This document shows positions 1 to 29,959 of a stretch of 64,000 nt of DNA, in pieces. Position 1 is the stretch's first letter. Every line of letters begins with the position of its first letter. The translations under genes were made by a program, and so were the position numbers. The notes under the pieces are model-generated. The model made no database searches. It was not told the DNA's origin and was given only the letters and a program-made list of their open reading frames with translations. Source of the DNA: Deltaproteobacteria bacterium (GTDB lineage Bacteria; Myxococcota_A; UBA9160; UBA6930); contig JAFDCZ010000001.1 in the NCBI GenBank assembly GCA_019312665.1, forward strand, positions 40,098 through 104,097, in the 5' to 3' direction.

Positions 1-2113
1 GGTCGACGAAACTCTCCATTCCCCGGGCCTTCGCCCGCTCGTCCACGGCCATGGCCAGGCGTGAGATGATCTCCCAGTCGGACTTCGCCTCGTAGTAGGA
101 AGTCGCCTTCTCACCGGAGTGGATGTAGGGCATCAGCGGTGTCGCCCACTTGTGCTCGCTTCGCTCGTACCAACCGGCCGCCGGAAGCACGTAATCGGAC
201 TGGAGCGCCGTCGACGTCATGCGGAAATCGAGCGTCACGACCGTATGCAGCTTTGGCCAGAGGTGCTCCAGGATCCGCGGGTAGTTCCGGATCCTGCGAA
301 GCGGATTGCTCCCCATGACCAGCATCATCTTGGGATCGTTCCCGGGTTTGGGCCAGACGTATTGCCACTCTTTCTCCAGGGATTCGTCGAGCACCTCCCG
401 CACCGGTCGCTTCAGGTAGGGATCCCATTGCTCGAGCTTCTCACTCCCCTCGAGCAGGCCCCCGTGTACGTACCAGAACATCGCCCCCGAGGTCATCCTC
501 CCTTCGGAAATCACTCCACGGCTGTGCTCGTGGACGATCATCTCCTCGCTGTATCCCTCGAGCTTCATGCGCGCCGTGTCGACGACCATGCCCCCGATGA
601 CCTTTAGGGCCGTCGTGTTCATCATGTCGGACAGCGAAAACATGTCGCGAACGAAGGGCTCGATGGAATCGTGATCGAGCCAGGGGAAACCGACGAATCC
701 ACTGCCCTTCTTTCCGTAGTTTCCCGTCAAGGCGAAGACCAGGGCCTGCACCCGCTCCATCAGGTTGCCGTGGTAGTACTTCGCCATGTTGCTGGTGGTG
801 ACCATGGCAGCGGATTTCGCTTGCCCAAGCTGGAGGGCGAGTTTGCGGATGAGCGCAGGCGGCGTCCCGCAAATCTTCGAGGCGTCTTCCGGACGGAAAC
901 CCGCGAGACGCTCGCGAAGCAGCGAGAAGACCGTGGAGACACCGACGCGGCTACCATCCTTCAGCGTCACCTCGAAGCGGCCTTCCAGCTCCGGCTCGAG
1001 CCCGTCGAGTCGCAGGCTCCTCCGCGGTGCAGCCACCGCTCCCCGCTCACGGTCCCAGAAGTAGAGTTCTTCGTCGCTTCCGCTTCCCTCGAGGTCGGCC
1101 GTGCGAAGCAGGCGGCGCGTGTCGTCGCGGACAAGCATGGGAAGATCCGTCTGCTCCGCCAGGAAATCGCGATCGATCAACTCTTCCTCGACGAGCACCT
1201 GGGCGACGGAGAGACCGAGGGCGGCGTCGGTGCCGGGTTTCACCGGCACGAAAAAATCAGCATGAATCGAAGAGGCGCTGTAGTCCGGCGCGATGCAGAC
1301 GAGGCGAGCGCCCTTGTAGCGCGCCTCCGTGAGGTAGTGTGCATTGGGAATCTGGGTGTAGAGGGGATTGCTCCCCCAGATCAGGATCAGATCCGAGTAG
1401 AAGTAGTCGTCGGCCGAGCTCTCGAAGGAGATCTTCCCGAAGGTCTCGGCCGCACCTCGGTGGCCATCGCCGATCTCGGTGTTCATGTCCAGGTTGGTCG
1501 AGTCCATCAACACCGATAGGCGTTGATGGCCCGCAGTCATCGTGCCCTCGGTATAGAGGGGGCCCAGTTCCCAGATCACGCGGTCGCAGCCGTCCTGCTC
1601 GATCGTATCGAGCATCGCATCCGCCACCTCATCGGTGGCCTGCTCCCAGGAGATCCGCTTCCAACGACCGGATCCCCGCGGCCCCACACGCTTGAGCGGA
1701 TGGCGAACCCGTCCGGGGTCGTACATGCGCTCGCTGAAGCAGGCCCCCTTCTGGCAACCTCGTGGGTTCGGGTCCGGAACGGATGCGTTCGTCTGGGGAT
1801 AGTCGGCGACCTGCTCCTCGCGCCAGACCATCCCGTCCTTCACGTACACGTTCCATGCACAATGCGCCTGGTACCAACAATTCACGAAATGGCTGCTTCG
1901 AACCACCTTGTCCCAGCGCCAGCGTTCCTGGTAGACATCGCGCCAGTCACCGTAGGGGGGCGGTGCAGGCGCGACGGATGAACCGGCCAGGGCCTCGGTA
2001 TCGCCGGGCTGAAGGCAACGAAGTCCCAGTGCGAGGCTCGCCGTACCCGCCGTACCGGCGATCAGGAAGCGGCGCCGACTGATGCCGGCCCGGCGTTTCA
2101 GCTCTTGACCCAT
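1..2113 (-). CDS. Type II DMSO-reductase-family Mo-bisPGD catalytic (alpha) subunit, ethylbenzene dehydrogenase / steroid C25 dehydrogenase-like, paralog 1. The C-terminus lies beyond the left window edge (about 704 codons present).
   Basis: Absent from the ORF track because no stop lies in the window. Manual reverse-complement translation from ATG 2113 gives MGQELKRRAGISRRRFLIAGTAG (twin-arginine signal), SSHFVNCWYQAHCAWNVYVKDG and NPRGCQKGAC (His/Cys FS0 cluster motif) and MNTEIGDGHRG (candidate Mo-ligand Asp). It stays open to position 1. It is collinear with, and roughly 60-65% identical by eye to, the 37456-40380 paralog. Plus-strand ORFs 119-607, 671-1519 and 1523-1981 are its antisense shadows. 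Confidence 0.85.
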   Translation of the reverse strand, partial: MGQELKRRAGISRRRFLIAGTAGTASLALGLRCLQPGDTEALAGSSVAPAPPPYGDWRDVYQERWRWDKVVRSSHFVNCWYQAHCAWNVYVKDGMVWREEQVADYPQTNASVPDPNPRGCQKGACFSERMYDPGRVRHPLKRVGPRGSGRWKRISWEQATDEVADAMLDTIEQDGCDRVIWELGPLYTEGTMTAGHQRLSVLMDSTNLDMNTEIGDGHRGAAETFGKISFESSADDYFYSDLILIWGSNPLYTQIPNAHYLTEARYKGARLVCIAPDYSASSIHADFFVPVKPGTDAALGLSVAQVLVEEELIDRDFLAEQTDLPMLVRDDTRRLLRTADLEGSGSDEELYFWDRERGAVAAPRRSLRLDGLEPELEGRFEVTLKDGSRVGVSTVFSLLRERLAGFRPEDASKICGTPPALIRKLALQLGQAKSAAMVTTSNMAKYYHGNLMERVQALVFALTGNYGKKGSGFVGFPWLDHDSIEPFVRDMFSLSDMMNTTALKVIGGMVVDTARMKLEGYSEEMIVHEHSRGVISEGRMTSGAMFWYVHGGLLEGSEKLEQWDPYLKRPVREVLDESLEKEWQYVWPKPGNDPKMMLVMGSNPLRRIRNYPRILEHLWPKLHTVVTLDFRMTSTALQSDYVLPAAGWYERSEHKWATPLMPYIHSGEKATSYYEAKSDWEIISRLAMAVDERAKARGMESFVD

Positions 2114-3126
2114 TCGATCGTCGCCGGATCGCGATCGAAACCGCCGAACATATCCTTCCAGCGGTAAGCGATCAGCAGATCCATCAGCTCGGACTTCTCG
2201 CCCGCACGGGTCTTCGCCATCTCCGACTTCATCAGCGCGAGAACATCCAGAACCTTGGGGCCGAAGAGCGACACCAGGTATTCATCCGGGATCCGCGGCT
2301 TCGATTCGTCGACGTCTCCGTTCTCGTCGAAGCGGGGCGGCGCCAGGGGCGGCACGTAGAAGACGTTCGGATCCGTGCCGTATTCTGGATGCAGAGGAAG
2401 CGCGGCCTTCCACTTGTCGACGAGTTTCCAGATCGGTCCTTCCTCATCGTCGCGATAACCGAGGAAGCGAACGCGGCCCGGACATTGCCGCGCGCATGCA
2501 TTGGCCACGCCCTGCTCGATGCGCGGAAAGCAGAAGATGCATTTCTGGGAGACCTTTTCCGCGTGGTTGAAGTAGATCTTCTTGTAGGGGCAGGCCTCCA
2601 TGCAGAAGCGGTAGCCGCGGCAGCGGTCCTCGTCGATCAGGACGATGCCGTCCTCTTCCCGCTTCACGATGGCCTTGCGGGGACAAGCCTCCAAGCATGC
2701 GGGGTGTGTGCAGTGGTTGCAGATGCGGGGCAGGTAGAAGTAGTAGGCGTTCGGGTATTCACCGGCGCCCTGGTCTTCGTCCCAATTCGGGCCCCAGTCC
2801 GGCTCTTCGCCCTTCACCTTGAGGTGGACCTTGTCCCCCTTGCCCCCGAAGAAGACCTCCTCGTGATTGAACTCCCAGGCCTCGCCGAAATCCTTTCGCG
2901 TGGGCAGCTTCCCCGGCACGGCGGTTCCGTCGCGGAACCCACCGCCCATTTCTTCCCAGTCGCGAGGTGTACCACGCCCGGGTTGGGTGTTGACCGAGTT
3001 CCACCACATGTACTCCATGCCCTCGTCGCGGGTCCAGAGCCGCTTGCAGGCGATCGTGCACGTCTGGCAGCCGATGCATTTGTTCAGATCCATCACCATT
3101 GCGAGCTGACGGTCGGGCTTCTCCAT
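2098..3126 (-). CDS. Fe-S electron-transfer (beta) subunit of the type II DMSO-reductase-family enzyme (NarH/EbdB-like)
   Basis: 342-aa ORF with four ferredoxin-type motifs: CIGCQTCTIACK, CNHCTHPACLEACP, CRGYRFCMEACP and CIFCFPRIEQGVANACARQCP. Its last 16 nt overlap the alpha-1 start. Confidence 0.9.
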   Translation of the reverse strand: MEKPDRQLAMVMDLNKCIGCQTCTIACKRLWTRDEGMEYMWWNSVNTQPGRGTPRDWEEMGGGFRDGTAVPGKLPTRKDFGEAWEFNHEEVFFGGKGDKVHLKVKGEEPDWGPNWDEDQGAGEYPNAYYFYLPRICNHCTHPACLEACPRKAIVKREEDGIVLIDEDRCRGYRFCMEACPYKKIYFNHAEKVSQKCIFCFPRIEQGVANACARQCPGRVRFLGYRDDEEGPIWKLVDKWKAALPLHPEYGTDPNVFYVPPLAPPRFDENGDVDESKPRIPDEYLVSLFGPKVLDVLALMKSEMAKTRAGEKSELMDLLIAYRWKDMFGGFDRDPATIEWVKS

Positions 3127-3129
3127 GGG

Positions 3130-3801
3130 TTACCTCGTGGTCTCGGGAACAGCGTCGAGTTGGAGTTCATGCCAGAGCGGTCCAGAGAAGGCCTTGATCC
3201 CTGCCCGCTCGCCGTGATTCCCATCCCACACCGCGACCCCGAAGCCCGTTTCGGCACCGGGCTCGAGCTGTGCGATGGGCTCCTGCGTATCGACGCGCAA
3301 CGCACGGGCGATGACGACACACCAGCGTCCGTCCTTCCAGGTTCCCCGGCCCCGCACAAGCTCGACATCGACGGTACGACTGGAGCCGAGGCCCTCGGCG
3401 ACCACGTGCCGGGCGCGCTCGTCGTCGGCGCGCCAGTACCAGGCATTCACCGCCATGCCGGGCGCTCCCATGGTGATGATCGGAGCCCCCGCGCTGCTTG
3501 GCAGGACGACGGCCGCCCCGTCCGTAAACTCGTGATTGTCGGCGGGTTCCCGGCCCCCATTGGCTGCGCTCCACTCGAGGCGGAAGGCGAGGACCTGCCC
3601 ATCATGAACCGCCGCGACGGAAGCGCGCGCGACGGAGCCGATCTTGCGACCCGCCCACGCCGCGCGGATATGAGCCGTAAGCTGCATACCGAGGGGTGTT
3701 CCCTCGAGCTTCAGCTCTTCGCGGCCGGCCTCCTTCCACACGGCTGCCTCCGGATCGAGGAAGGTCTCGAATTGGGCGGGAGGGACGTAGTGGGCTCGCA
3801 T
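3130..3801 (-). CDS. Heme-b (gamma) subunit, EB_dh/EbdC-like domain
   Basis: 223-aa ORF. The stretch DGAAVVLPSSAGAPIITMGAPGMAVNAWYWRAD and the later GERAGIKAFSGPLW resemble the Met/Lys heme-ligand regions of ethylbenzene-dehydrogenase-type gamma subunits. It lies 3 nt upstream of beta. A GAGGAG Shine-Dalgarno sits 9 nt before the ATG. There is no hydrophobic N-terminal signal. Confidence 0.8.
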   Translation of the reverse strand: MRAHYVPPAQFETFLDPEAAVWKEAGREELKLEGTPLGMQLTAHIRAAWAGRKIGSVARASVAAVHDGQVLAFRLEWSAANGGREPADNHEFTDGAAVVLPSSAGAPIITMGAPGMAVNAWYWRADDERARHVVAEGLGSSRTVDVELVRGRGTWKDGRWCVVIARALRVDTQEPIAQLEPGAETGFGVAVWDGNHGERAGIKAFSGPLWHELQLDAVPETTR

Positions 3802-3816
3802 GTCGAAATCTCCTCG

Positions 3817-4464
3817 TCAACGCGACGAATCCCCTCCTTTGGGATTCGTCCGGGGAGTCCGCGGCTCGATCGCTTCGCAGACGAACGCCGCCGCCTGGCG
3901 AAGCCACTGCTCGAGCGGAAACTCCGAATCGTTCATCCAATGCCCCAGCGCCACGTTCAACGCGCCGAGGACCATCTCGGCCAGAAAGGTCGCCTCGAGA
4001 TCCGTGCGCACTTCTCCCGCGGCCTGCCCTTCGCGGATCACCACCGCGAAGGGTTCGTGGACCGGTGAGAGATAGGGAGCGTCCTCGCCGGGCCGCGCGT
4101 GGCCCCGCATGAGTTCGAGCAGGACCTCCCGCGCGAGGCCTCGGGCTCCGGCGACGTCCGTGGCGACGGCGCCGGCGAAGCCCCGGATGCGTTCCGAGGC
4201 CGAGACCGGCCGCTTGAGCTGCTGATCGACGAGGGCCAGGAGGTGCTCGGAGACCTCGCTCGTCATCTCGACGAGAACGGCGGACTTGTTGGCGAAGTGG
4301 TTGAAGAAGGTGGCCGGAGCGACATCCGCCTTCTCGGCGATCTGCGCCACGGTCGTCGCGTCGTAGCCATTCTTGAGGAAGAGCTGGCGAGCCGTCTCGT
4401 AGATATGGACGCGCAGCTGGCGCTTCTTTCGCTCGCGGCGTCCTTCGCTGGCGGCTTCCGACAC
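3817..4464 (-). CDS. TetR/AcrR-family transcriptional regulator
   Basis: 215 aa. N-terminal HTH region RKKRQLRVHIYETARQLFLKNGYDATTVAQIAEKADVAPATFFNHFANKSAVL. GTG start at 4464. The stop lies only 15 nt upstream of the gamma gene on the same strand. Confidence 0.9.
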   Translation of the reverse strand: MSEAASEGRRERKKRQLRVHIYETARQLFLKNGYDATTVAQIAEKADVAPATFFNHFANKSAVLVEMTSEVSEHLLALVDQQLKRPVSASERIRGFAGAVATDVAGARGLAREVLLELMRGHARPGEDAPYLSPVHEPFAVVIREGQAAGEVRTDLEATFLAEMVLGALNVALGHWMNDSEFPLEQWLRQAAAFVCEAIEPRTPRTNPKGGDSSR

Positions 4465-4472
4465 GATCGCTC

Positions 4473-4519
4473 CTAAACTGTAGAGACGACCATAACTTTA
4501 GATGACAATCTAAGTTTAG
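4473..4519. promoter_or_regulatory. AT-rich palindromic operator/promoter candidate upstream of the TetR-gamma-beta-alpha operon
   Basis: CTAAACT (4473-4479) and AGTTTAG (4513-4519) form a perfect 7-bp inverted repeat. It flanks an inner imperfect palindrome, aactttagatgacaatctaagtt. The element sits in a roughly 100-bp AT-rich gap between the TetR start (4464) and the convergent end of the CoA-transferase gene (4571). Confidence 0.4.
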
Positions 4520-4570
4520 TGCAAGGTCAAAATTGAGATTTCGCCCTACGGAGCTCCAACAATGGGCGGC

Positions 4571-5836
4571 TCAGGGTTCGTCCGCGGGCTCAATGGCCCC
4601 CGCCGCCACGGCCCGCTCGACCTCCTCCGGCGTCATTCCGAGCAGCGAGCCAAACACGGAATCGTTGTCCTGGCCCTCCCCGGCGCCTGCCCTTCCGCTG
4701 CACCCCGGCGTGCCGGAAAGGCCGAGCGGAATGCCGGTCGCGGTCACCACCCCCTTGGCCATGTGCTCGATCTGCTCGAAAAAGCCGCGGGCGGCAAGGT
4801 GCGCGTCGTGCCGGGCCAGGTCCTCTGCGGTCTGGACCACCCCGGCCGCGATGCCGGCCTCCTGCAGCGCGGTCATCAGCTCGTAATCCGTGCGCATGAG
4901 GGTGCGCGTGGCGATCTCCGCGTCCAACACCTCGGCGTGCTCCAACCGCGCGGCAAGGGACGCGAAGCGCGGCTCACCGCGCCACTCCGGCCTTCCCAAC
5001 ACGCTGCAGAAGCTCTCCCACTCGGAGTCCGTCGCAACAGAGATCGCGCACCAGCGGTCCTCGCCGCGGCAGGGGTAGCAGCCATGGGGCGCAGCGCGCC
5101 GGGAGCGATTGCCCATCTTCTCCGGCTCCTGCTTCAGGGCAAGGTACTCCATCATCACGTGCCCGAAGCCGGCCACGGTCGCCTCGTACTGCGAGAGATT
5201 GATGTACTGCCCTCCTCCCCCCCGGTGGCGGTAGTCGAGAGCGGCCAGCACGGCGACCAGCCCGTGCAGGGCGCTGATCGCGTCGGGGTAGGCGTACTGG
5301 GTCAGCGTGCACTCCCGGGAGGGAAACCCAGAGAGCCGACTCATTCCCGACAGGGCTTCGATGTTAGGCCCCCAGGTCACGTAGCGCCTGCACGGCCCCG
5401 TATCGCCGAAGCCGGACGAACTGAGCATGACGAGCCCGGGGTTTACCTGCTGGAGCTCTTCGTAGCCCAGCCCGAGCTTGCCCATGACGCCTGCGCTGTA
5501 GTTCTCGATCACTATGTCGCTGCGGGCAACGAGGCGCTTGGCCAGATCCACGGCGAGAGGCTGCCGGAGATCCAGCGTCACGAAGTGCTTGCCCGCGTTC
5601 CAATCGGTGAACCAGGGCGAGAGCCGGGGTTGGATGCCCAGATCGGGGTTCCAGGGCGGAACGTAGAGCCGCACCACGTCGGGGCGGCTCCTGGATTCCA
5701 CCCGAATCACTTCGGCGCCGCACCATGCCAGGAATCGCCCAATCCACGGCCCCGCCATCGCGGCAGAGAACTCAACGACGCGCAGGCCGGCCAGAGCCTG
5801 GGCGGGCTCGCCCGAGGATCCATCCCCTCCGGGCAT
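4571..5836 (-). CDS. Family III (CaiB/BaiF) CoA-transferase-like protein, second member of a tandem pair; Gly at the position of the catalytic Asp
   Basis: The 613-aa track ORF was trimmed to ATG 5836, which overlaps the upstream stop as ATGA. N-terminus: MPGGDGSSGEPAQALAGLRVVEFSAAMAGPWIGRFLAWCGAEVIRVESRS. The active-site region reads SSSGFGDTGPCRRYVTWGPNIEALSGM, where other paralogs have (Y/I)D. Confidence 0.85.
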   Translation of the reverse strand: MPGGDGSSGEPAQALAGLRVVEFSAAMAGPWIGRFLAWCGAEVIRVESRSRPDVVRLYVPPWNPDLGIQPRLSPWFTDWNAGKHFVTLDLRQPLAVDLAKRLVARSDIVIENYSAGVMGKLGLGYEELQQVNPGLVMLSSSGFGDTGPCRRYVTWGPNIEALSGMSRLSGFPSRECTLTQYAYPDAISALHGLVAVLAALDYRHRGGGGQYINLSQYEATVAGFGHVMMEYLALKQEPEKMGNRSRRAAPHGCYPCRGEDRWCAISVATDSEWESFCSVLGRPEWRGEPRFASLAARLEHAEVLDAEIATRTLMRTDYELMTALQEAGIAAGVVQTAEDLARHDAHLAARGFFEQIEHMAKGVVTATGIPLGLSGTPGCSGRAGAGEGQDNDSVFGSLLGMTPEEVERAVAAGAIEPADEP

Positions 5837-7059
5837 CAGATGACACCTCCAGCCTGGAGTTCTTGCACCGCCGCTTCGGAGAGGCCGAGTTCGTCGCAGA
5901 AGATCTCCCGGTTGTGCTGTCCCAGCGAGGGGGCGCAACGGTAGATGCGCCACGGCGTCTTGGAGTGCCGATAGGGTGCGCCCGGATAGGTTAGACGGCC
6001 GACCATCGGATGGTCGACCTCTTCGAAGAACCCCCGCGATTCCAGGTGGGGATCCGCCGCTACCGCTGCCGCAGAATGAACGGGCGTGACGGCGATGTGC
6101 CTGCTCTGCCCGTCGCGGTAGGCCTCCTCGACGCTGAGCCGCGACATCAAGTCCGAGATGAACAGGTCCAGGAATTCGCGGTAGGGCAGCCGATTCGAGG
6201 ACGGCCCCTCGAACATCGGATCCAGGATCTCCTGGTTTCCGGTTGCCTCGTGGACCCATTGGGCCAGGGCTTTCCAGTGCAGCGGTCGATTGACCATCAG
6301 GTAGATGCTTCCGTCCCGGCACGGATAGGCACCGGAAGGGACCGAGGCGAACAAACCGGTTCCCTGGCGCTTGGGGACGATCCCGTCGTCGAGCCACTTT
6401 CCGACGCCACAAATGTGCGAGACCGAAGCGACCACCTCCTGCACGGAAATGTCGACGTGCTGCCCCTCGCCGCGCACCGAACTGGAAAGCAGCGCGATCA
6501 AGCTGCTGGCCGCCGCAACGGTGGCGGCCGCAACATGTGCCTGACTACCGGCCAATCGCACCGGCGGATCCGTTTCGTCGCCGGTGACGGCCATCGAACC
6601 ACCCAGGGCGCTAGCCACGAGATCCGAGGAACGGAAAGCTCGATGCGGACCCGTCTGCCCGAAACCGGAAATCGAGGTGAGGACCAGGCGGGCGTTCGCC
6701 TGACGCAGGCTCTCATAGCCCAGGCCCAGGCTCTCGAGAGTGCCCGGCGCGAGAGCCTCGATGACGAGATCCGCGCTGCTCGCGAGCTTTTCGAAGAGTT
6801 CACGTCCCTCCGACCGCTGGAGATCCAGCGTCACACCGCGCTTGCTGGTGTTCAAATAGAGGAAGGAGAGGCTCTCCTCCCGGCCCGATCCCGCCTGGAT
6901 CGTCGGAGGCGTGCGCCGGCTGGGGTCGCCGCCGGGGGGCTCCAGCTTGATCACGTCGGCGCCCAGATCCGCCAGCAACTTTCCGCAGTAGGCGCCCTTC
7001 TCGTCGGCAAGTTCCAGGACTCGCCGCCCACTCAGGGCACCGCTTGGCCGGGTCGGCAT
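5836..7059 (-). CDS. Family III (CaiB/BaiF) CoA-transferase, first member of the tandem pair
   Basis: 407 aa. [41 protein letters not shown]. Active-site region [26 protein letters not shown], with Asp present. Confidence 0.9.
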   Translation of the reverse strand: [407 protein letters not shown]

Positions 7060-7111
7060 GAATCCCCCCCTGGCCTTCGACCCCCCCCACTTCGTGACGA
7101 AGGTGCCGGCC

Positions 7112-7143
7112 TTGACGTATCCTAACTCAAGAGTAAGCTACTA
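7112..7143 (+). promoter_or_regulatory. Candidate sigma70-type promoter overlapped by a palindromic operator motif in the divergent region between the CoA-transferase operon and a TetR gene
   Basis: TTGACG (7112-7117), a 16-nt spacer, then TAAGCT (7134-7139), ending 7 nt before the TetR ATG at 7146 (near-leaderless). TAACTCaaGAGTAAGCTACT (7123-7142) recurs at 18/20 identity in reverse orientation at 53100-53119. Confidence 0.35.
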
Positions 7144-7145
7144 GC

Positions 7146-7814
7146 ATGAGAGTCAGCCCCCCGGCTGCTCCGCGCCGGACCGCCCAGGTCACCCAAGAGA
7201 CCCGGGAGTTGATCCTGGCGGCAGCAGAGGCCGAGTTCGCCGCGCGCGGATTCGCCGAAGCGCGCCTGGCAGATATCGCGAAGCGCGTCGGGATCACCCG
7301 CGCGGCCGTCATCTACCACTTCCGCGACAAGAGCGCCCTCTACGACGCCGTGCTCGAGGCGGCTTTTGGGCCCCTCACCGAGCAGATCCAGACGTCGGTG
7401 AGCTTGCCAGGCTCGAACGCCGAGCGGATCGAGCGGGTCATCACGGCGTGGTTCGAGTGCGCTGTCGAGCGTCCCACGCTGGGTCGGCTGTTCATACGGG
7501 AGGTCGCTGCGGCAGAGGATACCCTGCGCCCCGAGGTCGACCGACTGGCCACACCCATGTTCGCTGCCTTTCTCAACGCCATCGAACAGGGACAACGCGA
7601 CGGCGAATTCCGCCCGATCAGCGCGATCCATGTTGCGAACATCCTCTCAGGCGCGGCGATTTGGTTGACCAGCGGAGCGCACCTGACCGGCGGACAAGAA
7701 ACCGAACCGCCCTCAGAACGCCTCGCCCGATACGGGGACGAGTTGGCCGGAGTCGCGCGCCACCTGCTGGGAATCCGGCCGCAAGACGGGGAAGGCGAGA
7801 ACGATCATGAGTGA
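7146..7814 (+). CDS. TetR/AcrR-family transcriptional regulator
   Basis: 222 aa. TRELILAAAEAEFAARGFAEARLADIAKRVGITRAAVIYHFRDKSALYDAVLE. Divergent from the 4571-7059 CoA-transferase pair. Confidence 0.9.
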   Translation: MRVSPPAAPRRTAQVTQETRELILAAAEAEFAARGFAEARLADIAKRVGITRAAVIYHFRDKSALYDAVLEAAFGPLTEQIQTSVSLPGSNAERIERVITAWFECAVERPTLGRLFIREVAAAEDTLRPEVDRLATPMFAAFLNAIEQGQRDGEFRPISAIHVANILSGAAIWLTSGAHLTGGQETEPPSERLARYGDELAGVARHLLGIRPQDGEGENDHE

Positions 7815-7864
7815 TCCGCTCCCGGAGCTCGGAGCTTCGAGAGAGAGACGGGGCGAACGAAGTC

Positions 7865-9571
7865 ATGATGGAAGCCAGATCGACGAGCTTTGATCACACC
7901 GTCGACGTCCTGGTCGTCGGTTCCGGAGCCGGTGCCATGACGGCGGCCCTGCGCGCCCACGACCAGGGTGCCAACGCGCTCCTGATCGAGAAGACCGACC
8001 GTTACGGTGGCTCTTCCGCGATGTCGTCCTGCCTGCTGTGGATCCCGAACAACCACCTGATGGCCGACGTCGGTGTGCCGGACACCCCGGAGGAAGCGTG
8101 GAGCTACCTGAAGGGCACCACCGCCGGCGCCGTCTCCGACGATCGGCTCGACGCCTATCTGGGGAAGGGCCCCGAAGCGCTCAAGTACCTCGTCGACAGA
8201 ACGCGCGCGAAGTTCATCTCCCTGCCCGAGTACTGCGACTACTATCCGCGGGTTCCTGGCAGCAAGCCGGGCGGGCGCTCGGTCGAGCCGGAGCACTTCG
8301 ACGCCCGACAGCTGGGCGAAGATTTCATCGCCATGCGCAACCAGAACCCGCAGATGCAGATCCTGGGACGTCTCGGGATGACGGCCGTCGAGGCCCGCAT
8401 GACCATGACCGGGCAGCCGGGTGGGAGGATGCTCTTCGCGAAGCTCGTCCTCAAGTATCTGATGGACATCCGCTGGCGCCTCCGGTCTCCCCGCGACCGG
8501 AATCCGTCGGGTGGCAACGCGCTGATCGGGATGCTTCGCCTCTCCCTGATGGATCGGGACATCCCCCTCTGGCTGGAGACTCCGGCACGCGAGCTGATCG
8601 TCGAAGATGGACGCGTAACGGGCGTCGTGGTGGAGAAGGACGGCCAGCAGACCCGCATCGGAGCAACGCGAGGCGTGATTCTCGGTGCGGGCGGCTTCGA
8701 GGGCAACCAGGCCATGCGCGAGAAATATCTGCCCAATCCCACGCGCAAGGAGTGGAGCTGCGGCAACCCGCATAACACCGGGGACGCGATCGAGATGGGC
8801 AGGAAGATTGGCGCCGGAATCGACCTCATGGACGACGCCTGGTGGGGGCCGACCACCATCGTCCCCGGTGAGGATCTGGCGCGTTTTTTCGTGATCGAGA
8901 AGTCCCTGCCCGGTAGCATCCTGGTGAACAAGAGGGGCCACCGGTTCACGAATGAAGCGGCCCCCTACCTCGACATCGTGAATGTCATGTACCAGGAAGA
9001 CAGCCCTGAATCTCCCTGCGTGCCGGCCTATTTCGTTTTCGACGCCACCTATCGAAAGAATTACATCTGCGGCCCGCTCTTGCAGGGCTCCGCGCATCCC
9101 GACTGGATGGCACGCAAGCTCTTCAAACAGGGCTATCTCAAGAAGGCGAAGACGCTCGATGATCTCGCTGCGCAGATCGGTGTGAATACCGAGGGGCTGA
9201 AGGAGTCCGTTGCGAGGAACAACGAGTACGCTCGCACGGGCAAGGATCCCGAGTTCGGTCGCGGAGACACGATCTACGACCGCTACTACGGTGATGCCAA
9301 GATCGAGCCGAACCCGTGCATCGGTCCGATCGAAACCGCCCCCTACTACGCGATCGAGGCCTTCCCCGGCGAGCTCGGAACAAAGGGAGGGCTCACGGTC
9401 GACGCCCGGGCACGCGTGCTCACCGAGGAGGGAGACGTGATCCCGGGGCTCTACGCGATTGGCAACTGCTCGTCATCGGTGATGGGACGCAGTTATCCCG
9501 GAGCAGGTGCCACGATCGGGCCGGCGACCATCTTCGGCTACATCGCCGCATCCGACGCGGCGGGCAGTTGA
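7865..9571 (+). CDS. FAD-dependent flavoprotein dehydrogenase, 3-oxosteroid 1-dehydrogenase (KstD)-like, FAD_binding_2 family
   Basis: Trimmed to ATG 7865 (MMEARSTSFDHTVDVLVVGSGAGAMTAAL Rossmann dinucleotide motif). C-terminal region GELGTKGGLTVDARARVLTEEGDVIPGLYAIGNCS is typical of KstD/fumarate-reductase-type flavoproteins. Confidence 0.85.
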   Translation: MMEARSTSFDHTVDVLVVGSGAGAMTAALRAHDQGANALLIEKTDRYGGSSAMSSCLLWIPNNHLMADVGVPDTPEEAWSYLKGTTAGAVSDDRLDAYLGKGPEALKYLVDRTRAKFISLPEYCDYYPRVPGSKPGGRSVEPEHFDARQLGEDFIAMRNQNPQMQILGRLGMTAVEARMTMTGQPGGRMLFAKLVLKYLMDIRWRLRSPRDRNPSGGNALIGMLRLSLMDRDIPLWLETPARELIVEDGRVTGVVVEKDGQQTRIGATRGVILGAGGFEGNQAMREKYLPNPTRKEWSCGNPHNTGDAIEMGRKIGAGIDLMDDAWWGPTTIVPGEDLARFFVIEKSLPGSILVNKRGHRFTNEAAPYLDIVNVMYQEDSPESPCVPAYFVFDATYRKNYICGPLLQGSAHPDWMARKLFKQGYLKKAKTLDDLAAQIGVNTEGLKESVARNNEYARTGKDPEFGRGDTIYDRYYGDAKIEPNPCIGPIETAPYYAIEAFPGELGTKGGLTVDARARVLTEEGDVIPGLYAIGNCSSSVMGRSYPGAGATIGPATIFGYIAASDAAGS

Positions 9572-9573
9572 GC

Positions 9574-10677
9574 ATGGGCTTTCGAGTCCAGACCGTGATC
9601 CTGGGCCCCGACACCGACCAGTACGCCGGCGATGGCCAGGGGACGACCGACATCCGAGCTATTGCCGCGGCGGCTCGCCGATGCGAGGAGCTGGGTTTCG
9701 ACGGTTTGACTGCGCCTGAGGCCGGCCACGACCCCTTCCTTCCCCTGGTCGTCGCGGCAGAGCACACTCAGAGCATCAAGCTGGGCACCAACGTCGCCAT
9801 CGCCTTTCCGCGCAGCCCCATGGTGACGGCACAGCTTGCCTGGGATCTGCAAAACCTCTCCGGCGGTCGTTTTCAGTTGGGATTGGGCACACAGGTGAAG
9901 GGCCACGTCGAGCGGCGCTACGCATCGAATTGGACCAGCGCCCCCGGCCCGCGCTTGCGCGACTACCTGCTCTGCGTGAAGGCGATGTTCGAGACCTTCC
10001 AAACCGGGGCCAGACCCGATTTCGAAGGCGAGCACTACCGCTTCACGCTGATGAATCCCTTCTTCAACCCGGGCCCCATCGAGCACCCGGACATCCCGAT
10101 CCACCTGGCCGCCGTCAATCCCTGCATGGCGCGCCTTGCGGGCGAATTGGGCGATGGTTTGCGTCTCCACCCCATCGCCACCTTCCGCTACACGCGGGAG
10201 GTGATCCTGCCCGCAATAGCGGAGGGCGCCAGGAAAGCCGCGCGCCAGACGTCGGAGATCGACCTGATCGGAGCACCCTTCCTGGCGATCGCCAACGACG
10301 AGGCTGGCGTTCAAACGGCCAAGCAAGCACTGAAGCAGCACATCGCCTTCTATGCCTCCACGCCGACCTACCACGCCGTGCTCGAATTCCACGGCTGGGA
10401 GGGCGTCGGCCAGGAGCTCCACCGCCTGTCCCGCGCGGGCGGGTGGAAGGAAATGCCGAACCAAATCACTGACGAAATGCTCGGCGAGTGGGCCATCGTC
10501 GGCACCCGCGACGAACTGGTCACCCGGGTTCGAGAGCGCTGCTCCGACATCTTCTCGACCGTCCTGCTGGATCTCCCGCCCGAGCTGCGGCGGGATGAAG
10601 CCTGGTTGAGCGAAACCATCACGGCGCTGCATCGTGAAGCCGGCAAGACATCCCAACAGACGAGGCGAACAGCATGA
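9574..10677 (+). CDS. Luciferase-like monooxygenase (LLM) class oxidoreductase, probable F420-dependent subgroup
   Basis: Trimmed to ATG 9574 (MGFRVQTVILG). GFDGLTAPEAGHDPFLPLVVAAEHTQSIKLGTNVAIAFPRSPMVTAQLAWDLQNLSGGRFQLGLGTQVKGHVERRY matches my recollection of the MSMEG_2256-type F420 LLM family. Its stop overlaps the next ATG as ATGA (10674-10677). Confidence 0.8.
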   Translation: MGFRVQTVILGPDTDQYAGDGQGTTDIRAIAAAARRCEELGFDGLTAPEAGHDPFLPLVVAAEHTQSIKLGTNVAIAFPRSPMVTAQLAWDLQNLSGGRFQLGLGTQVKGHVERRYASNWTSAPGPRLRDYLLCVKAMFETFQTGARPDFEGEHYRFTLMNPFFNPGPIEHPDIPIHLAAVNPCMARLAGELGDGLRLHPIATFRYTREVILPAIAEGARKAARQTSEIDLIGAPFLAIANDEAGVQTAKQALKQHIAFYASTPTYHAVLEFHGWEGVGQELHRLSRAGGWKEMPNQITDEMLGEWAIVGTRDELVTRVRERCSDIFSTVLLDLPPELRRDEAWLSETITALHREAGKTSQQTRRTA

Positions 10678-11498
10678 CATCTGAGGATCACCTCCTCTTC
10701 GAGGTCGACGACGGAGTTGGCATCGTGACCTTGAACCGCCCGGAGCGCCTGAACGCGATCAGCTGGGAGCTGGGCAGGGATCTCGTCGAACTCTTCCGCA
10801 AGGTCCGACATCGCGACGAGGTGCGGGTCCTGGTGCTGACCGGCGCCGGCAGGGCGTTCTCGTCTGGCGGCGATGCCGAATGGATCAGCGGGGGATCGGA
10901 GGACCGCGGCCTGCCCGGACTCTCGGATCTTCCGCTGGAGCGCTATCAGCGCAAGACACCCGCCGGCCCGCTCGGAGAGTTCACCCGCATGATCGTCGAG
11001 GTGGACAAGCCGGTGATCGCGGCTCTCTCTGGCCCGGTCATGGGCGCCGGCCTCGCCTTCGCTCTCGCCTGCGACCGCCGCATCGCCGACACCACGACGC
11101 GTTGGTGCGCCGCCATGGTGCGACTCGGTTTCGCCCCGGACTGCGGCATCACCTACTTCCTCCCGCGGGTCACCCGGCTGTCGACGGCGCTCATGATGGT
11201 CGAGACCGGCCGGACCCTGAAGGCCGAAGAGGCACACCGCGAAGGTCTCATCGACGAGCTCGTCGAGGAGGGACAGGCCCTCCCGAAGGCGCTGGAATAC
11301 GCGAAGGTGCTCGCCGACGGGCCGAGCGTCGCCATCGACCTCGCACGCCGCTTCATCCACAAATCCCTCACCTCGACACTGGACGAGATGATCGACTACG
11401 AGGCCGTGGCCGCGACCATGTCTGCACATACGGCCGACGCGCGGGAGGGCACGAGCGCTTTCCTGGAAAAACGCAAAGCGAAATTCAAGGGCTACTAG
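10674..11498 (+). CDS. Enoyl-CoA hydratase/isomerase (crotonase) family protein
   Basis: 274 aa. GIVTLNRPERLNAISWELGRDLVELFRKVRHRDEVRVLVLTGAGRAFSSGGD and C-terminal EGTSAFLEKRKAKFKG. Confidence 0.9.
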   Translation: MTSEDHLLFEVDDGVGIVTLNRPERLNAISWELGRDLVELFRKVRHRDEVRVLVLTGAGRAFSSGGDAEWISGGSEDRGLPGLSDLPLERYQRKTPAGPLGEFTRMIVEVDKPVIAALSGPVMGAGLAFALACDRRIADTTTRWCAAMVRLGFAPDCGITYFLPRVTRLSTALMMVETGRTLKAEEAHREGLIDELVEEGQALPKALEYAKVLADGPSVAIDLARRFIHKSLTSTLDEMIDYEAVAATMSAHTADAREGTSAFLEKRKAKFKGY

Positions 11499-11613
11499 AA
11501 GCCGGCGGACGAGCCCGGCGCGAATGGAGAGGACGAGAAACTTGGCGTTGCCTGAACGTCACGGGGTGGACCCGTCGCTTGCGGGAGCGCGCGCAGAATG
11601 CGACGGCGGCGGA

Positions 11614-11847
11614 ATGATTCCGGGCACTCACTTTGCCGGCCGGGAGGAGTTCACAGGAAGCCTGACCGGCGAGTACGTCGACCACGGCGATCCACCCTGG
11701 CGTTGGTATCTCCTCGCCGAACTCTCCCACAAACCACCGAACTACCCGGCGGATGCCGTGTGGTGCGAATCCGAAAGCCTGTTTCTGATCGACGCCGAGG
11801 GCAGGTCCTTGACGGACACCCTCCCCAGTGGACATAGGAAGAAGTGA
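11614..11847 (+). CDS. Hypothetical small protein (weak call)
   Basis: This is the only ORF in the 350-bp gap between the crotonase and etfB. Codon position 3 is moderately G/C-rich from the internal ATG 11614 (MIPGTHFAGREEF...). No recognisable domain. Confidence 0.25.
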   Translation: MIPGTHFAGREEFTGSLTGEYVDHGDPPWRWYLLAELSHKPPNYPADAVWCESESLFLIDAEGRSLTDTLPSGHRKK

Positions 11848-11848
11848 G

Positions 11849-12664
11849 ATGCGAATCGTCGTCTGTGTGAAGGAAGTACTCGACCCCGATGCGGTCAACA
11901 ACTACGCTCTCGCTGGGCGCCTCGAGATCGGTGAGGACGGGAAGTCGTTGACCCAGACCACGATTCCGCGCCTGATGAACGGCTTCGACGAGCAGGCCCT
12001 GGAGGCCGCGCTCCGGTTGCGCGACGCGGGCGTGGAGTGCCGCATCGGCGCGGTCTCGGTGGGCCCTGATACCGCAACCATCCTCAAGCACGCCGCGGCC
12101 CTGGGAGCAGACGAGATCGCCGCCCTCCCGATGGACGACCCCACACCCGACTACCATGTCGCCGCCGCATTGTTGGCCGCCTACATCCGCTCGAGCGGAG
12201 ATGCCGATCTCGTCCTGTGCGGAAGACAAGCGTCGGACGACGATCAGGGCGTGGTCCCCGCCCTGATCTGCGAAGCCCTCGGGATGCCGCTCGTGACCAA
12301 CGCGCGTGCAATCGAGCTCGCGCCGGCAGCCGACGAACCCACACTTCGGATCACCCGGGTCACGCCGGATGGTGACGAAGTGGTCGAGGTGTCCTGCCCG
12401 GCCGTCGTCACCGTGAGCAACGAGCTGGGAGAGCCGCGCTACCCCACGGCGGCCAAGAAGATCGCGGCGCGGCGGATGAAGCCCGAGATCATCACGCCGG
12501 AGGGGCTCTCCCTGCCTGCCGAGACACTCCGCCCCCGGGTCGTGGCCCAACGGCAGTTCGTCCCCACCGTCGCGGGCGACTGCGAGTTCGTACCCGGCGA
12601 GAGCCCGGCCGAACTGGCCGAGGCATTGGTCGCGCGCCTGCGACAAGACAGCTTGATCCAATGA
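11849..12664 (+). CDS. etfB: Electron transfer flavoprotein beta subunit
   Basis: Trimmed to ATG 11849 behind AGGAAGAAG. MRIVVCVKEVLDPDAV, LVLCGRQASDDDQGVVPALICEALGMPLVTNA and VSNELGEPRYPTAAKKIAARR. Confidence 0.9.
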   Translation: MRIVVCVKEVLDPDAVNNYALAGRLEIGEDGKSLTQTTIPRLMNGFDEQALEAALRLRDAGVECRIGAVSVGPDTATILKHAAALGADEIAALPMDDPTPDYHVAAALLAAYIRSSGDADLVLCGRQASDDDQGVVPALICEALGMPLVTNARAIELAPAADEPTLRITRVTPDGDEVVEVSCPAVVTVSNELGEPRYPTAAKKIAARRMKPEIITPEGLSLPAETLRPRVVAQRQFVPTVAGDCEFVPGESPAELAEALVARLRQDSLIQ

Positions 12665-12714
12665 GGCCAGGGCTCGAAGCGAGACGCCGGCAACGCAACG
12701 AAGAGGAGAGCGTC

Positions 12715-13698
12715 ATGGATGCAAAACCGATTGTGGTTTGCACGTGGAACGAGAGCCAGGGAGGGCTCACGGTGGGTGCGGAAGAAGCACTCACCCTCGG
12801 CCGAGGGGTGGCAGGCGCTACAGGTGCGAAGCTCCGTTTGCTGGTGCTCGGACCGCTTCCCGAGGCGGCCATGGAAACGGCCGGACGCTTCGGCGCGGAC
12901 GCTGTGGACTGGATCGAAGACGCCGCGCTCGAAGCGTTCTCACCAGACGCCTACGTAGAGGCCCTCGCCGGCTACTGCCAGCAAGAGTCGCCGGCGCTCG
13001 TGCTCTTCAACCAGGCCGCAGACACCCGCCTCGTGGCCCCGCGCCTGGCCGGGCGCGTGGGCGCCGGTGTCGTGATGAACGGTGTCGACGTTTCGGTCGG
13101 CGAAGGCGGAGGCCTCCAGGCCACTGCCTCGGCCTACGGTGGCGATACGCAGATGGTCTACGAGCTATCCGGGGCGCCTTCGTACGTGGTGGCGCTCAGC
13201 GCCAACGCGCTGCTCCCCGAACCTGCGGAGGGCGGCCCGACCGAGCCGGAATGCCGAGTGATCTCGAGCGATCTCAGCGGCGTGCAGGAGCGCGTTCGCG
13301 TAATCGAGCAGGCCCGAGCGGAAGGCCCGCGCCTGGAAGACGCCGATATCATCGTGTCGGGCGGGCGCGGCCTGGGCGGGCCCGAGAATTACAAGCTGAT
13401 CGAGCAGCTCGCCGAGGCTCTCGGCGGGTTGGCGGGTGCATCCCGGCCCATCGTCGACGAGGGCTGGGTGGACTCTTCCCAGCAGGTGGGCCTGACCGGC
13501 AAGATCACCCGACCGGCCCTGTATCTGGCCGCGGGGATCTCGGGCGCAAGCCAGCATATGGCCGGGTGCTCCGCCGCCAAGACGATCGTCGCGATCAACA
13601 GTGATCCGGACGCCGCGATCTTTCGCTACGCCCGCTACGGCCTGGTAGGCGATTGCCTGGAAATCCTCCCCGAGCTGATCCGGGCGGCGAGACAATGA
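12715..13698 (+). CDS. etfA: Electron transfer flavoprotein alpha subunit
   Basis: Trimmed to ATG 12715 behind GAAGAGGAGAG. C-terminal FAD-binding region IIVSGGRGLGGPENYKLIEQLAEALGGLAGASRPIVDEGWVDSSQQVGLTGKITRPALYLAAGISGASQHMAG. Confidence 0.9.
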   Translation: MDAKPIVVCTWNESQGGLTVGAEEALTLGRGVAGATGAKLRLLVLGPLPEAAMETAGRFGADAVDWIEDAALEAFSPDAYVEALAGYCQQESPALVLFNQAADTRLVAPRLAGRVGAGVVMNGVDVSVGEGGGLQATASAYGGDTQMVYELSGAPSYVVALSANALLPEPAEGGPTEPECRVISSDLSGVQERVRVIEQARAEGPRLEDADIIVSGGRGLGGPENYKLIEQLAEALGGLAGASRPIVDEGWVDSSQQVGLTGKITRPALYLAAGISGASQHMAGCSAAKTIVAINSDPDAAIFRYARYGLVGDCLEILPELIRAARQ

Positions 13699-13717
13699 AG
13701 GGCGACGAGGTGAAGCG

Positions 13718-14158
13718 ATGACGACCCACGAGCGGATTCCCGTGATGGAAGGGTTGTTCGCCGAGACGGCGGAGGGGCCGCGCCTGCTGGGCTCGCGCTG
13801 CCAGACCTGCAGCACACCCTACTTCCCTCGATCCGCCGTCTGTCACAACCCGGATTGCGGGGAGAGCCGGATGGAGAACGCCGACTTCGGCCCGCGGGGC
13901 CGGCTGTGGAGCTGTGCGATCCAGAACTACCCGCCGCCGCTGCCCGCCCGGTACGAGGAGCCCTACATCCCCTACGCCGTCGGCGTCGTCGATCTCGACG
14001 AAGGCTTGCGGGTCGTCGCGCGCATGAGCGTCGATGATCCGGATTCCCTGGAGCTGGACGCCGAGGTGGAGCTCACGATCGAGCCCATCTACCGGGACGA
14101 CGAGGGCCGCGACGTCACGACCTGGAAGTTCAAGCCACTCCAGCCAGGCCGCAGTTGA
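13718..14158 (+). CDS. DUF35 family Zn-ribbon/OB-fold protein (thiolase/aldolase partner, BbsA/ChsH2-DUF35-like)
   Basis: 146 aa. Zn-ribbon CQTCSTPYFPRSAVCHNPDC followed by OB-fold-like YAVGVVDLDEGLRVVARM. Lies immediately upstream of a thiolase-like gene. Confidence 0.85.
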   Translation: MTTHERIPVMEGLFAETAEGPRLLGSRCQTCSTPYFPRSAVCHNPDCGESRMENADFGPRGRLWSCAIQNYPPPLPARYEEPYIPYAVGVVDLDEGLRVVARMSVDDPDSLELDAEVELTIEPIYRDDEGRDVTTWKFKPLQPGRS

Positions 14159-18943: not shown

Positions 18944-18998
18944 GCCGCGCTGCGTCTCATGAAGGTCGTCCAAACAGGTTCCGCAGAGGAGAGAGTCC

Positions 18999-20537
18999 AT
19001 GGCCATCGTCACCCCCCTGGAGTCGGCACCGGGGGCACGCCGGCGGCTCGCCCTCGCCAATCCCGCAACTCTCGAACCCATCGGCGAGATCGAGGTCCAG
19101 GCCGCCGACGACGTGCGGGCCGCTGTGATGAAGGCCCGCGAGACGCAGCCGGAGTGGGCCGCGAGTTCCTTCGACATGCGCGCCACCGTCATTCGCCGTG
19201 CGCTCCGCATCCTGCTGGACCGGCAGGATGAATTCATCGACCTCATCCTGAGCGAAACCGGCAAGGCGCGCAGCGAGGCGCTCCAGATGGAGATCTACGC
19301 GGCCTGCGACTCCCTCAACTACTATGCAAGACGAGCGGGGAAGATCCTCAAGCCCAGGAGGGAACGCCTGCACGGAATGTTCTCACTCCTCAAACAGCTG
19401 CACGTGGTCTACCGCCCGCTCGGCGTAGTAGGTGTGATCAGTCCCTGGAACGGTCCCTTCATCCTGGCGATCAATCCCTGCATTCAGGCCCTCATGGCGG
19501 GGAACGCCGTGATCCTGAAGCCCTCGGAGGTGACCCCCTTCTCGGGAAAACTCGTGGGGGATCTCTTCGACGCGGCGGAGCTGCCCGCGGGGCTCCTTCA
19601 GGTGATGCTCGGCGACGGAGAAACCGGCGCCGAGCTCACCCGAGCGGGCGTCGACAAGATCTCCTTCACCGGCAGCGTCGCCACCGGACGCGAGGTGGCC
19701 GTGGCCTGCGCGGAGCAGCTGATCCCCTGCACGCTCGAGCTCGGAGGGAAGGACGCGATGATCGTCTGCGGAGATGCCGATCTCGACAATGCGGCTGGTG
19801 GTGCCGTCGCGGGCGCATTCATGAACACCGGGCAGTATTGCTGCGGCACCGAGCGCGTCTACGTGGTGAATTCGGTGGCCGACGAATTCACGCGAAGGGT
19901 CGTCGAGCGGACCCAGCGGCTGCGGCAAGGGGCCGGCGGCGAATTCGACGTCGGCGCCGTCTTCTGGCCGCGCCAGCTCGAGATCATCCAGGAGCATGTC
20001 GCCGACGCCATCGAGAAGGGCGCCAAGATCCTTTGCGGCGGTCGCCGAACCCCTTCGCTACCCGGCCTCTTCTACGAGCCCACAGTGCTCATCGACGTCC
20101 ACCACGATATGCAGATCATGAGCGACGAGACCTTCGGCCCCATCCTTCCCATCATGCGGGTGGACGACGAAGAGACGGCGATCCGCATGGCCAACGACAG
20201 CGACTACGGCCTCGGCGCAAACGTGTGGACGACCAATCGGGAAAAGGGAATCGCCATGGCCCGTCGCCTCGAGTCCGGCAGCGTGTGCGTGAACGACATG
20301 ACCATGACCTACGGCTTGCAGGAAGCCCCTTTCGGTGGCGTCAAGCAGAGCGGGATCGGACAGGTCAATGGGGAGACCGGCCTCAAGGGCTACTGCCATG
20401 CCACGCCCATCCTCGTCGATCGCTTCGGAGGCAGGCAAACCGCCAGCAGGTATCCCTACACCCACGAGAAGGACGAGGGCATCAGGAGGTTCATGCGCCT
20501 GCAGTGGGGTACCGCCCTCGGCCGGCGGCTGAGCTGA
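18999..20537 (+). CDS. NAD(P)-dependent aldehyde dehydrogenase
   Basis: 512 aa. FTGSVATGREV, CTLELGGKDAMIV (catalytic Glu) and FMNTGQYCCGTERVYV (catalytic Cys). Confidence 0.9.
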   Translation: MAIVTPLESAPGARRRLALANPATLEPIGEIEVQAADDVRAAVMKARETQPEWAASSFDMRATVIRRALRILLDRQDEFIDLILSETGKARSEALQMEIYAACDSLNYYARRAGKILKPRRERLHGMFSLLKQLHVVYRPLGVVGVISPWNGPFILAINPCIQALMAGNAVILKPSEVTPFSGKLVGDLFDAAELPAGLLQVMLGDGETGAELTRAGVDKISFTGSVATGREVAVACAEQLIPCTLELGGKDAMIVCGDADLDNAAGGAVAGAFMNTGQYCCGTERVYVVNSVADEFTRRVVERTQRLRQGAGGEFDVGAVFWPRQLEIIQEHVADAIEKGAKILCGGRRTPSLPGLFYEPTVLIDVHHDMQIMSDETFGPILPIMRVDDEETAIRMANDSDYGLGANVWTTNREKGIAMARRLESGSVCVNDMTMTYGLQEAPFGGVKQSGIGQVNGETGLKGYCHATPILVDRFGGRQTASRYPYTHEKDEGIRRFMRLQWGTALGRRLS

Positions 20538-20620
20538 GCATCGCGACTCGAAGGTGGCGAGATCCCATCTAGACCGCGGAGCGGACAAGGACCCGGTCTC
20601 GCCGACCTGACCGCCTGCTT

Positions 20621-23913: not shown

Positions 23914-23971
23914 TATTTGTAGTACTCACGAACGTTTGTTTATCTTAGTAGTCGTTCGTTATACTTGCTAC
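23914..23971. promoter_or_regulatory. AT-rich promoter/operator candidate between the divergent CrtI-pair operon and the hypothetical/alpha-3 operon
   Basis: Local G+C falls far below the window average. ACGAACG (23928-23934) and CGTTCGT (23953-23959) form a perfect 7-bp inverted repeat with an 18-nt AT-rich spacer. TATAAC reads on the minus strand at 23963-23958. Confidence 0.3.
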
Positions 23972-29947: not shown

Positions 29948-29959
29948 TTATGAACCCGT

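Follow-up and report, generated by a model that had tools for sequence, protein, structure and literature searches.

The 64-kb stretch of DNA analyzed here (positions 40,098 to 104,097 of contig JAFDCZ010000001.1; hereafter the window) is part of a dense catabolic island for steroid or isoprenoid side chains in an uncultured 'Deltaproteobacteria'/Myxococcota-like metagenome-assembled genome (MAG), and it encodes catalytic (alpha), iron-sulfur (beta) and heme b (gamma) subunits of a molybdenum (Mo) enzyme. We propose, with a probability of roughly 60%, that these genes specify a kit-type hydroxylase of the S25DH/ethylbenzene dehydrogenase (EBDH) family, in which a core operon and several alpha-only units use a common beta-gamma pair; as part of the same proposal, the product would be a periplasmic, water-dependent Mo hydroxylase of the S25DH/EBDH type. 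Over approximately 83 kb, which includes the sequence on both sides of the window, there are five alpha genes and one gene each for beta, gamma and a chaperone (delta). Subunit sharing as such is published biology in Sterolibacterium denitrificans. The locus is therefore best read as a known design, that of S25DH-type modular alphas with a common beta-gamma pair and one chaperone, in a new lineage and in a more extreme form. What is new relative to that design is the gamma-beta operon with tandem alphas of different subfamilies, together with the alpha-only accessory units. The initial annotation, which was made from the window alone, had recognized three alphas and a single beta/gamma pair. 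Its finding is real, although the window shows a larger locus in truncated form: the three alphas match PF00384/PF01568 and TIGR03479-type models, and at least two more lie past position 1, raising the number to at least five.

The extended view was obtained by adding 10.9 kb on the left side of the window and 8.4 kb on its right side. The left extension was read from a sister-assembly contig that is 99.95% identical to window positions 1-13849; the second assembly of the same population comprises contigs of 46.8 and 38.8 kb. Third-position G+C was the first criterion for choosing genes and family scans were the second (the G+C content of the window is 62-69%). Related loci compared with the window are labeled with L-numbers, of which L082 holds the sequence left of position 1 and L166 is the locus of a sister species (GCA_024228115.1, 87-90% nucleotide identity). 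Among GTDB species representatives the closest beta genes belong to Myxococcota MAGs (87% identity). The coordinates of the features are collected in Table 1.

On the 99.95%-identical contig the core operon has the order TetR-gamma-beta-alpha1-alpha0-delta. Its genes are tightly packed, with overlaps of 16 nt between beta and alpha1 and of 4 nt both between alpha1 and alpha0 and between alpha0 and delta. The two alphas stand in tandem and are 42% identical to each other. Beta scores above the cut-off of TIGR03478 (538.9 bits; cut-off 480.7) and has the four NarH-type cysteine groups expected for three [4Fe-4S] clusters and one [3Fe-4S] cluster (residues 17-27, 136-148, 169-179 and 196-215), the third group having Tyr instead of the second Cys. 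Gamma has its best, full-length match in TIGR03477 (137.3 against a cut-off of 169.85), and its M110 and K202 align to the EBDH heme ligands Met108 and Lys201. As had been annotated, beta and gamma are found only beside alpha1; tblastn searches of the window with beta, gamma and delta queries revealed neither a second beta or gamma nor any delta in the 64 kb. The 10.9 kb to the left has no second beta or gamma, and the 8.4 kb to the right has no alpha, beta, gamma or delta at all. Looking beyond the window for such genes, as the initial annotation had suggested, thus yielded a delta on the left and no second beta/gamma pair within the ~83 kb.

This delta is a NarJ/EbdD-type chaperone gene (PF02613), located 3.7 kb past position 1 as the last gene of the operon. 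It scores above the cut-off of TIGR03482 (159.3; cut-off 152.3) and is also present on the window's own contig (NCBI MBW2392654). The reported lack of a chaperone consequently holds for the 64-kb window and fails for the operon; it is an artefact, because the window edge cuts the operon before delta. The gene at 3817-4464 was considered as a chaperone candidate and ruled out, since the family scan identified it as a TetR regulator. As regards conservation, clustering at 90% identity places beta in a group of 493 members drawn from many metagenomes, whereas the adjoining gamma is a singleton and the groups of the alphas contain 2-14 members; no other subunit is nearly as conserved as beta.

The five alphas share pairwise identities of about 33-60%. 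Their best matches, all of full length, are to TIGR03479 (scores of 793-952 against a cut-off of 984.75), and the subunits of this locus score far below the equivalog cut-offs of the NCBIfam EbdA-D models. Twin-arginine (Tat) signals and the FS0 and Asp motifs, ascribed earlier to the three alphas of the window, are invariant in the alignment of all five: R13, R14 and F16 of the Tat motif, the FS0 ligands H75, C79, C85 and C120, and D216, which aligns to the EBDH Mo ligand Asp223. In alpha1 the Tat motif is SRRRFLI, and alpha2 matches the Pfam TAT_signal model. Among the related loci, many alpha homologs next to gamma-beta(-delta) in Chloroflexota, Actinomycetota and similar MAGs (L050-L081) lack a twin-arginine motif ahead of the conserved RW-x-WD anchor, which suggests that they are cytoplasmic versions of the enzyme.

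The alphas could be placed relative to the enzymes of S. denitrificans through its alpha3, which was the one alpha of that organism compared at full length. It was found via a Steroidobacteraceae alpha0 orthologue and recognized by its published signal peptide, and its locus (L085) reads gamma3-beta3-alpha3. Alpha0 is 62.7% identical to it over 963 aa, whereas alpha1, alpha2, alpha3 and the fifth alpha are only 38.6-39.2% identical; because of this difference alpha0 is identified as the orthologue of the S25DH-type subunit, the predicted C25-hydroxylase. Hydroxylation at other positions, or of other side chains, is the probable role of the remaining alphas. The window beta and gamma are 73.6 and 46.6% identical to beta3 and gamma3, respectively. 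An origin of the window in S. denitrificans itself was considered and rejected, given the 'Deltaproteobacteria' MAG as source and a beta no closer than this 73.6%. A neighbour-joining tree built with 112 alphas of the related loci puts alpha1 in a clade whose members are always first after gamma-beta, and alpha0 in a clade that also provides the sole alpha of gamma-beta-alpha-delta operons. Alpha3 and the fifth alpha are sisters, and alpha2 forms a long branch beside an alpha that heads an alpha-beta-gamma cluster.

How far the single beta/gamma pair may be shared differs between the alphas. The initial annotation had suggested a module in which catalytic subunits are swapped on one electron-transfer pair. 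For alpha1 and alpha0 this is well supported by their tandem position in the core operon and by a survey of loci centred on beta in GTDB species representatives: in 24 of the 80 loci a single beta is accompanied by two to four alphas in the same direction (the layouts, with subunits abbreviated to initials, include GBAAD, GBAAA, AGBAAAD and GBDAAA). For alpha3 and the fifth alpha sharing is plausible. Alpha3 is situated in an operon for CoA-ester side chains, where an enoyl-CoA hydratase gene ends 1 nt ahead of it and its stop codon lies within the overlap with an acyl-CoA dehydrogenase gene; this operon is kept in the sister species. Elsewhere, alpha3 orthologues occur as extra alphas of gamma-beta operons, 78% identical in L006 (after gamma, beta, alpha1 and alpha0) and 63% identical in L041 (after gamma, beta and another alpha), and in L010 the gene immediately before gamma-beta encodes an orthologue of the fifth alpha; both observations support sharing. 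The sister species retains both the core operon, with amino-acid identities of 86-95%, and the operon of alpha3, and has neither the cassette that carries alpha2 nor, at the matching place, the unit of the fifth alpha. Alphas have therefore been gained or lost without beta and gamma. For alpha2 the swapping idea finds no support in comparison, and a dedicated pair elsewhere in the genome is a possible partner.

The fifth alpha lies directly downstream of a kinase-like APH-family phosphotransferase gene. In the published cascade C25-hydroxylation is followed by phosphorylation, elimination and C26-hydroxylation (PMC7411048), and the 25-hydroxysteroid kinase of S. denitrificans is a 'phosphotransferase family' protein of approximately 40 kDa (PMC8449060). 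Because that kinase is likewise of the phosphotransferase family, the pairing of APH with the fifth alpha would fit the cascade. In L041, too, the gene of the alpha3 orthologue is followed by APH-like and amine-oxidase-like genes. The last residues of the signal peptide are a lipobox-like L-S-A-C in the fifth alpha and LFGC or LPGC in the published signals of alpha5-7 from S. denitrificans; on these grounds some subunits of this kind may be Tat-exported lipoproteins.

Alpha2 resides in an accessory cassette of 11.1 kb whose breakpoints were determined by blastn against L166, and no repeats or mobility genes were seen at its junctions. The cassette encodes an aldehyde dehydrogenase (ALDH), two flavoproteins resembling CtmAB/delta24-desaturase, two small open reading frames (ORFs), alpha2, an amine-oxidase/phytoene-desaturase-like flavoprotein and a TetR regulator. 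The pair of CtmAB-like flavoprotein genes at 20621-23913, for which the alpha/beta pair of delta24-steroid desaturase served as comparison (PMC11061730), is also linked to alpha2 orthologues in L086, L088, L093, L094 and L096. We regard alpha2 as a candidate S26DH-type subunit because of this desaturase-like linkage, the ALDH in the cassette, the alpha-first gene order of its orthologues and its signal peptide, which is like that of alpha5, to which it aligns without gaps (RRQFL...LxLF). A second segment lacking in the sister species, 3.3 kb in length (34172-37479; acyl-CoA dehydrogenase, nitroreductase-family and thiolase genes), likewise has junctions without repeats or mobility genes.

The ratio of five alphas to one pair could also be a sampling effect, with more beta/gamma pairs located outside the ~83 kb and used by the orphan alphas, alpha2 above all. 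We consider this possible, though less probable than the common pair. An alpha2-centred metagenome scan found 15 orthologous loci (orthologues 55-80% identical), and in nine of them (L088-L092 and L097-L100), as well as in L016, a separate beta' and gamma' come directly after alpha2; of these nine, L089 and L098 are on contigs that stop within beta', and another five of the 15 end too early to tell. These pairs, with which alpha2 orthologues are normally found, are clearly distinct from the window pair (beta' 59.6% and gamma' 35% identical). In L100 an 80%-identical alpha2 with beta' and gamma' adjoins an 86%-identical copy of the window gene at 30070-31572, from which it follows that the loss or relocation of beta'/gamma' in the lineage of the window is recent. 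Dedicated pairs, which the initial annotation had set against a shared module, thus do accompany alpha2 orthologues in other genomes, and none occurs within the ~83 kb here. Several further points weigh against a common pair. S. denitrificans has six beta/gamma pairs (PMC6153880), and the MAG may have more of them beyond the region seen; in both L002 and L007 a second beta occurs close to the main cluster, within 10 kb; the alphas that have been shown to share one pair in S. denitrificans are 72-82% identical, well above the values among the alphas here; and the survey, being beta-centred, is blind to the frequency of orphan alphas. The case for sharing is one of synteny. On the other hand, a sampling effect does not account well for the failure to find a second pair in the window or its two extensions, for the comparison with the sister species, in which the cassette of alpha2 and the APH-alpha unit are each gained or lost with alpha alone, or for the alpha3 orthologues in S25DH-type gamma-beta operons. 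There is also a second lineage, L087, in which the alpha2 orthologue has no downstream beta/gamma and is followed by a major facilitator superfamily transporter.

A stronger form of the common-pair reading would have one S25DH-type gamma-beta pair and one chaperone serve all five alphas, which represent three deep subfamilies (33-63% identical) and include an S26DH-type alpha2 stripped of its ancestral dedicated beta'/gamma'. This we hold to be possible, though less likely than not. If it is true, new substrate specificities would come and go with alpha-only cassettes, each relying on the electron-transfer module already present, and the cross-subfamily promiscuity would go well beyond the precedent of S. 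denitrificans.

Some of the orphan alphas, especially alpha2 after the loss of beta'/gamma', might instead be unexpressed or functionless remnants on their way to being lost. Alpha2 and the fifth alpha are indeed missing from the sister species and are hence non-essential to the lineage, but the state of the genes makes decay very improbable. All five alphas are intact ORFs that keep every cofactor ligand and the Tat motif, and their third-position G+C of approximately 0.82 is like that of the neighbouring genes. In addition, alpha2 belongs to a coherent cassette with its own TetR regulator and is under purifying selection: the ratio of nonsynonymous to synonymous substitution rates (dN/dS) is 0.13-0.23 against L086, L087 and L088, no higher than between copies that keep beta/gamma.

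It is just as improbable that the orphan alphas need no NarH-type beta, with FS0 handing its electrons straight to another acceptor. The sole points in its favor are the lack of an adjacent beta/gamma and the presence of a small conserved ORF before alpha2 in the two cases where the pair is missing (the window and L087). The characterized enzymes of this branch of the type II dimethyl sulfoxide (DMSO) reductase family are all alpha-beta-gamma complexes (EBDH, PDB 2IVF; S25DH and S26DH, PMC6016249, PMC7411048), and the small ORF has neither a cofactor motif nor a fold match. Its 148-aa product belongs to an uncharacterized family with 124 representatives at 50% clustering. The ORF adjoins alpha2 orthologues in L086, L087, L094 and L096, and is absent from L088 and L093, where ctmAB-like genes abut alpha2. 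It was also considered as a divergent chaperone or gamma; despite a confident AlphaFold2 model (pLDDT 84; a five-strand sheet with helices), no Pfam, PDB-sequence or PDB-fold match was found, and the candidate was rejected.

If the common-pair reading is correct, the core operon would supply a substrate-independent electron wire, composed of beta with its three [4Fe-4S] clusters and one [3Fe-4S] cluster and gamma with a Met/Lys-ligated heme b, together with a NarJ/EbdD-type maturation chaperone and two catalytic subunits. More catalytic subunits would come from pathway-specific units without beta/gamma, namely alpha3 from the CoA-ester operon, the fifth alpha from behind the kinase-like APH gene and alpha2 from the cassette. 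Every alpha carries a predicted Tat signal, and beta and gamma carry none. By analogy with the characterized families, delta would help to load apo-alpha with Mo-bisPGD, after which the loaded alpha would dock to the beta-gamma pair in the cytoplasm and carry it through the Tat system. In the periplasm, electrons would then pass from Mo through FS0, beta and heme b to cytochrome c.

The closest known counterparts are the S25DH1-4 enzymes of S. denitrificans (alpha1-4 with beta3gamma3 or beta4gamma4, and SdhD), which belong to the same family, have the same gamma-beta-alpha order (L085) and, as here, carry the Tat signal on alpha alone. The genome of S. denitrificans has eight alpha, six beta, six gamma and two chaperone genes (PMC6153880). 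Its alpha1, alpha2 and alpha3 are each active when produced with beta3gamma3 and SdhD (PMC6016249), and SdhD also matures S26DH1 (PMC7411048). What the initial annotation stated about this organism, that alphas outnumber beta/gamma pairs and that different alphas work with a shared pair, is therefore right (PMC6153880, PMC6016249). The differences are that here alphas of different deep subfamilies stand in tandem within a gamma-beta operon that ends with delta, that the ratio of alphas to pairs is 5:1 locally as compared to 8:6 genome-wide in S. denitrificans, and that the host is an uncultured Myxococcota/'Deltaproteobacteria' MAG instead of a betaproteobacterium.

The S26DH1-3 enzymes (DH5-7) are a further point of comparison. 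S25dA1 and S25dA5-7 are approximately 38% identical (PMC6153880), which resembles the ~39% of alpha1, alpha2, alpha3 and the fifth alpha to the S25DH alpha. The S26DH clusters are alpha-first, as judged from the DH5-7 forward primers at the alpha N-termini, and so are those of the alpha2 orthologues. S26DH enzymes are also functionally linked to delta24-desaturase and C26-ALDH (PMC11061730, PMC7411048), look-alikes of both of which flank alpha2. Each S26DH has its own beta/gamma, whereas alpha2 has none adjacent.

Among solved structures, EBDH (EbdABCD, PDB 2IVF) comes closest, with E = 4e-196 for alpha1 and E = 8e-30 for gamma. EBDH and p-cymene dehydrogenase have the FS0 ligands, the Mo-ligand Asp, the heme Met/Lys and a delta chaperone in common with the enzymes described here, and the EBDH spacing H-x3-C-x4/5-C recurs in alpha1, alpha3 and the fifth alpha. 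Unlike here, EBDH has one alpha per beta-gamma-delta and the order alpha-beta-gamma-delta, and its gene context is aromatic hydrocarbon degradation and not steroid-type CoA chemistry. The ynfEFGH-dmsD operon of Escherichia coli likewise combines tandem paralogous catalytic subunits with a single Fe-S subunit, a single anchor and one chaperone. It differs in belonging to another branch of the DMSO reductase family, in encoding a membrane-anchored reductase and in the close relatedness of its alphas.

If one beta-gamma-delta set accepts very divergent alphas, O2-independent hydroxylation of sterol side-chain C-H bonds would be a modular trait, spread by alpha-only cassettes among uncultured sediment and soil bacteria. 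A single gamma-beta-delta expression chassis could then be used to screen environmental alphas for selective steroid hydroxylation, e.g., in the synthesis of 25-hydroxyvitamin D3. According to the beta-centred survey, it is common for MAGs of Myxococcota, Gammaproteobacteria, Chloroflexota and Actinomycetota to have operons with more than one alpha, and no description of this was found in the literature searched.

Table 1. Features of the window and of the sequence to its left (positions are those of the window unless stated otherwise).
Feature	Position	Strand	Description
alpha1	1-2113	-	Mo-bisPGD catalytic subunit; first alpha after beta; window edge leaves the N-terminal 704 of 966 aa
beta	2098-3126	-	NarH/EbdB-type, four Fe-S cluster motifs, no signal peptide; 16-nt overlap with alpha1 start
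gamma	3130-3801	-	PF09459 (EB_dh), heme b subunit, no signal peptide
TetR-family regulator	3817-4464	-	15 nt upstream of gamma; same place in the sister species
Accessory cassette	18945-30087		11.1 kb; absent from the sister species; no beta/gamma
Two adjacent FAD amine-oxidase/phytoene-desaturase-like genes	20621-22156, 22153-23913	-	Assigned by family scans
Conserved small ORF, 148 aa	24049-24495	+	Upstream of alpha2
ORF, 47 aa	24552-24694	+	Stop codon overlaps alpha2 start codon
alpha2	24691-27594	+	Complete 967-aa catalytic subunit; deep branch; no beta/gamma adjacent
alpha3	37456-40380	-	Complete, 974 aa; in CoA-ester side-chain operon; no beta/gamma adjacent
Xanthine-dehydrogenase-family Mo enzyme	43813-47756	-	MoCoBD large subunit 43813-46263; 2Fe-2S subunit within 46264-47127
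CoxG-like gene	52482-53063	-	Near the xanthine-dehydrogenase-family enzyme
Fe-S/CCG-domain protein (HdrD-like)	53274-55349	+	Possible membrane partner of the electron-transferring flavoprotein at 11828-13698
Wax-ester synthase/DGAT gene	62773-63999	+	Continues past the right window end
APH-family phosphotransferase (362 aa) and fifth alpha (959 aa)	L082 16720-20748, left of position 1	Convergent to core operon	Fifth alpha directly downstream of APH; no beta/gamma beside

The surrounding island contains, according to family scans, many genes for family III CoA-transferases, as well as genes for ChsH2-like, enoyl-CoA hydratase, thiolase-like and acyl-CoA dehydrogenase proteins. The same scans identified an electron-transferring flavoprotein, KstD-like FAD enzymes, an aldehyde dehydrogenase, three TetR regulators and a Mo enzyme of the xanthine dehydrogenase family. 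The genes of the latter are placed upstream of the alpha3 operon, and its FAD_binding_5 subunit was assigned from the sister locus L166; the enzyme might, like AtcABC, act on ring A in anaerobic steroid degradation. No Rfam families, the Moco riboswitch included, and no tRNAs were detected in the window. One CoA-transferase gene differs between the assemblies: an in-frame stretch of 48 nt at 5726-5773, which encodes 16 residues of the N-terminal motif of CoA-transferase III, is kept in the window and in the sister species (421-aa product) and missing from the 99.95%-identical sister assembly (405-aa product), the difference being either a strain-level indel or an assembly artefact.

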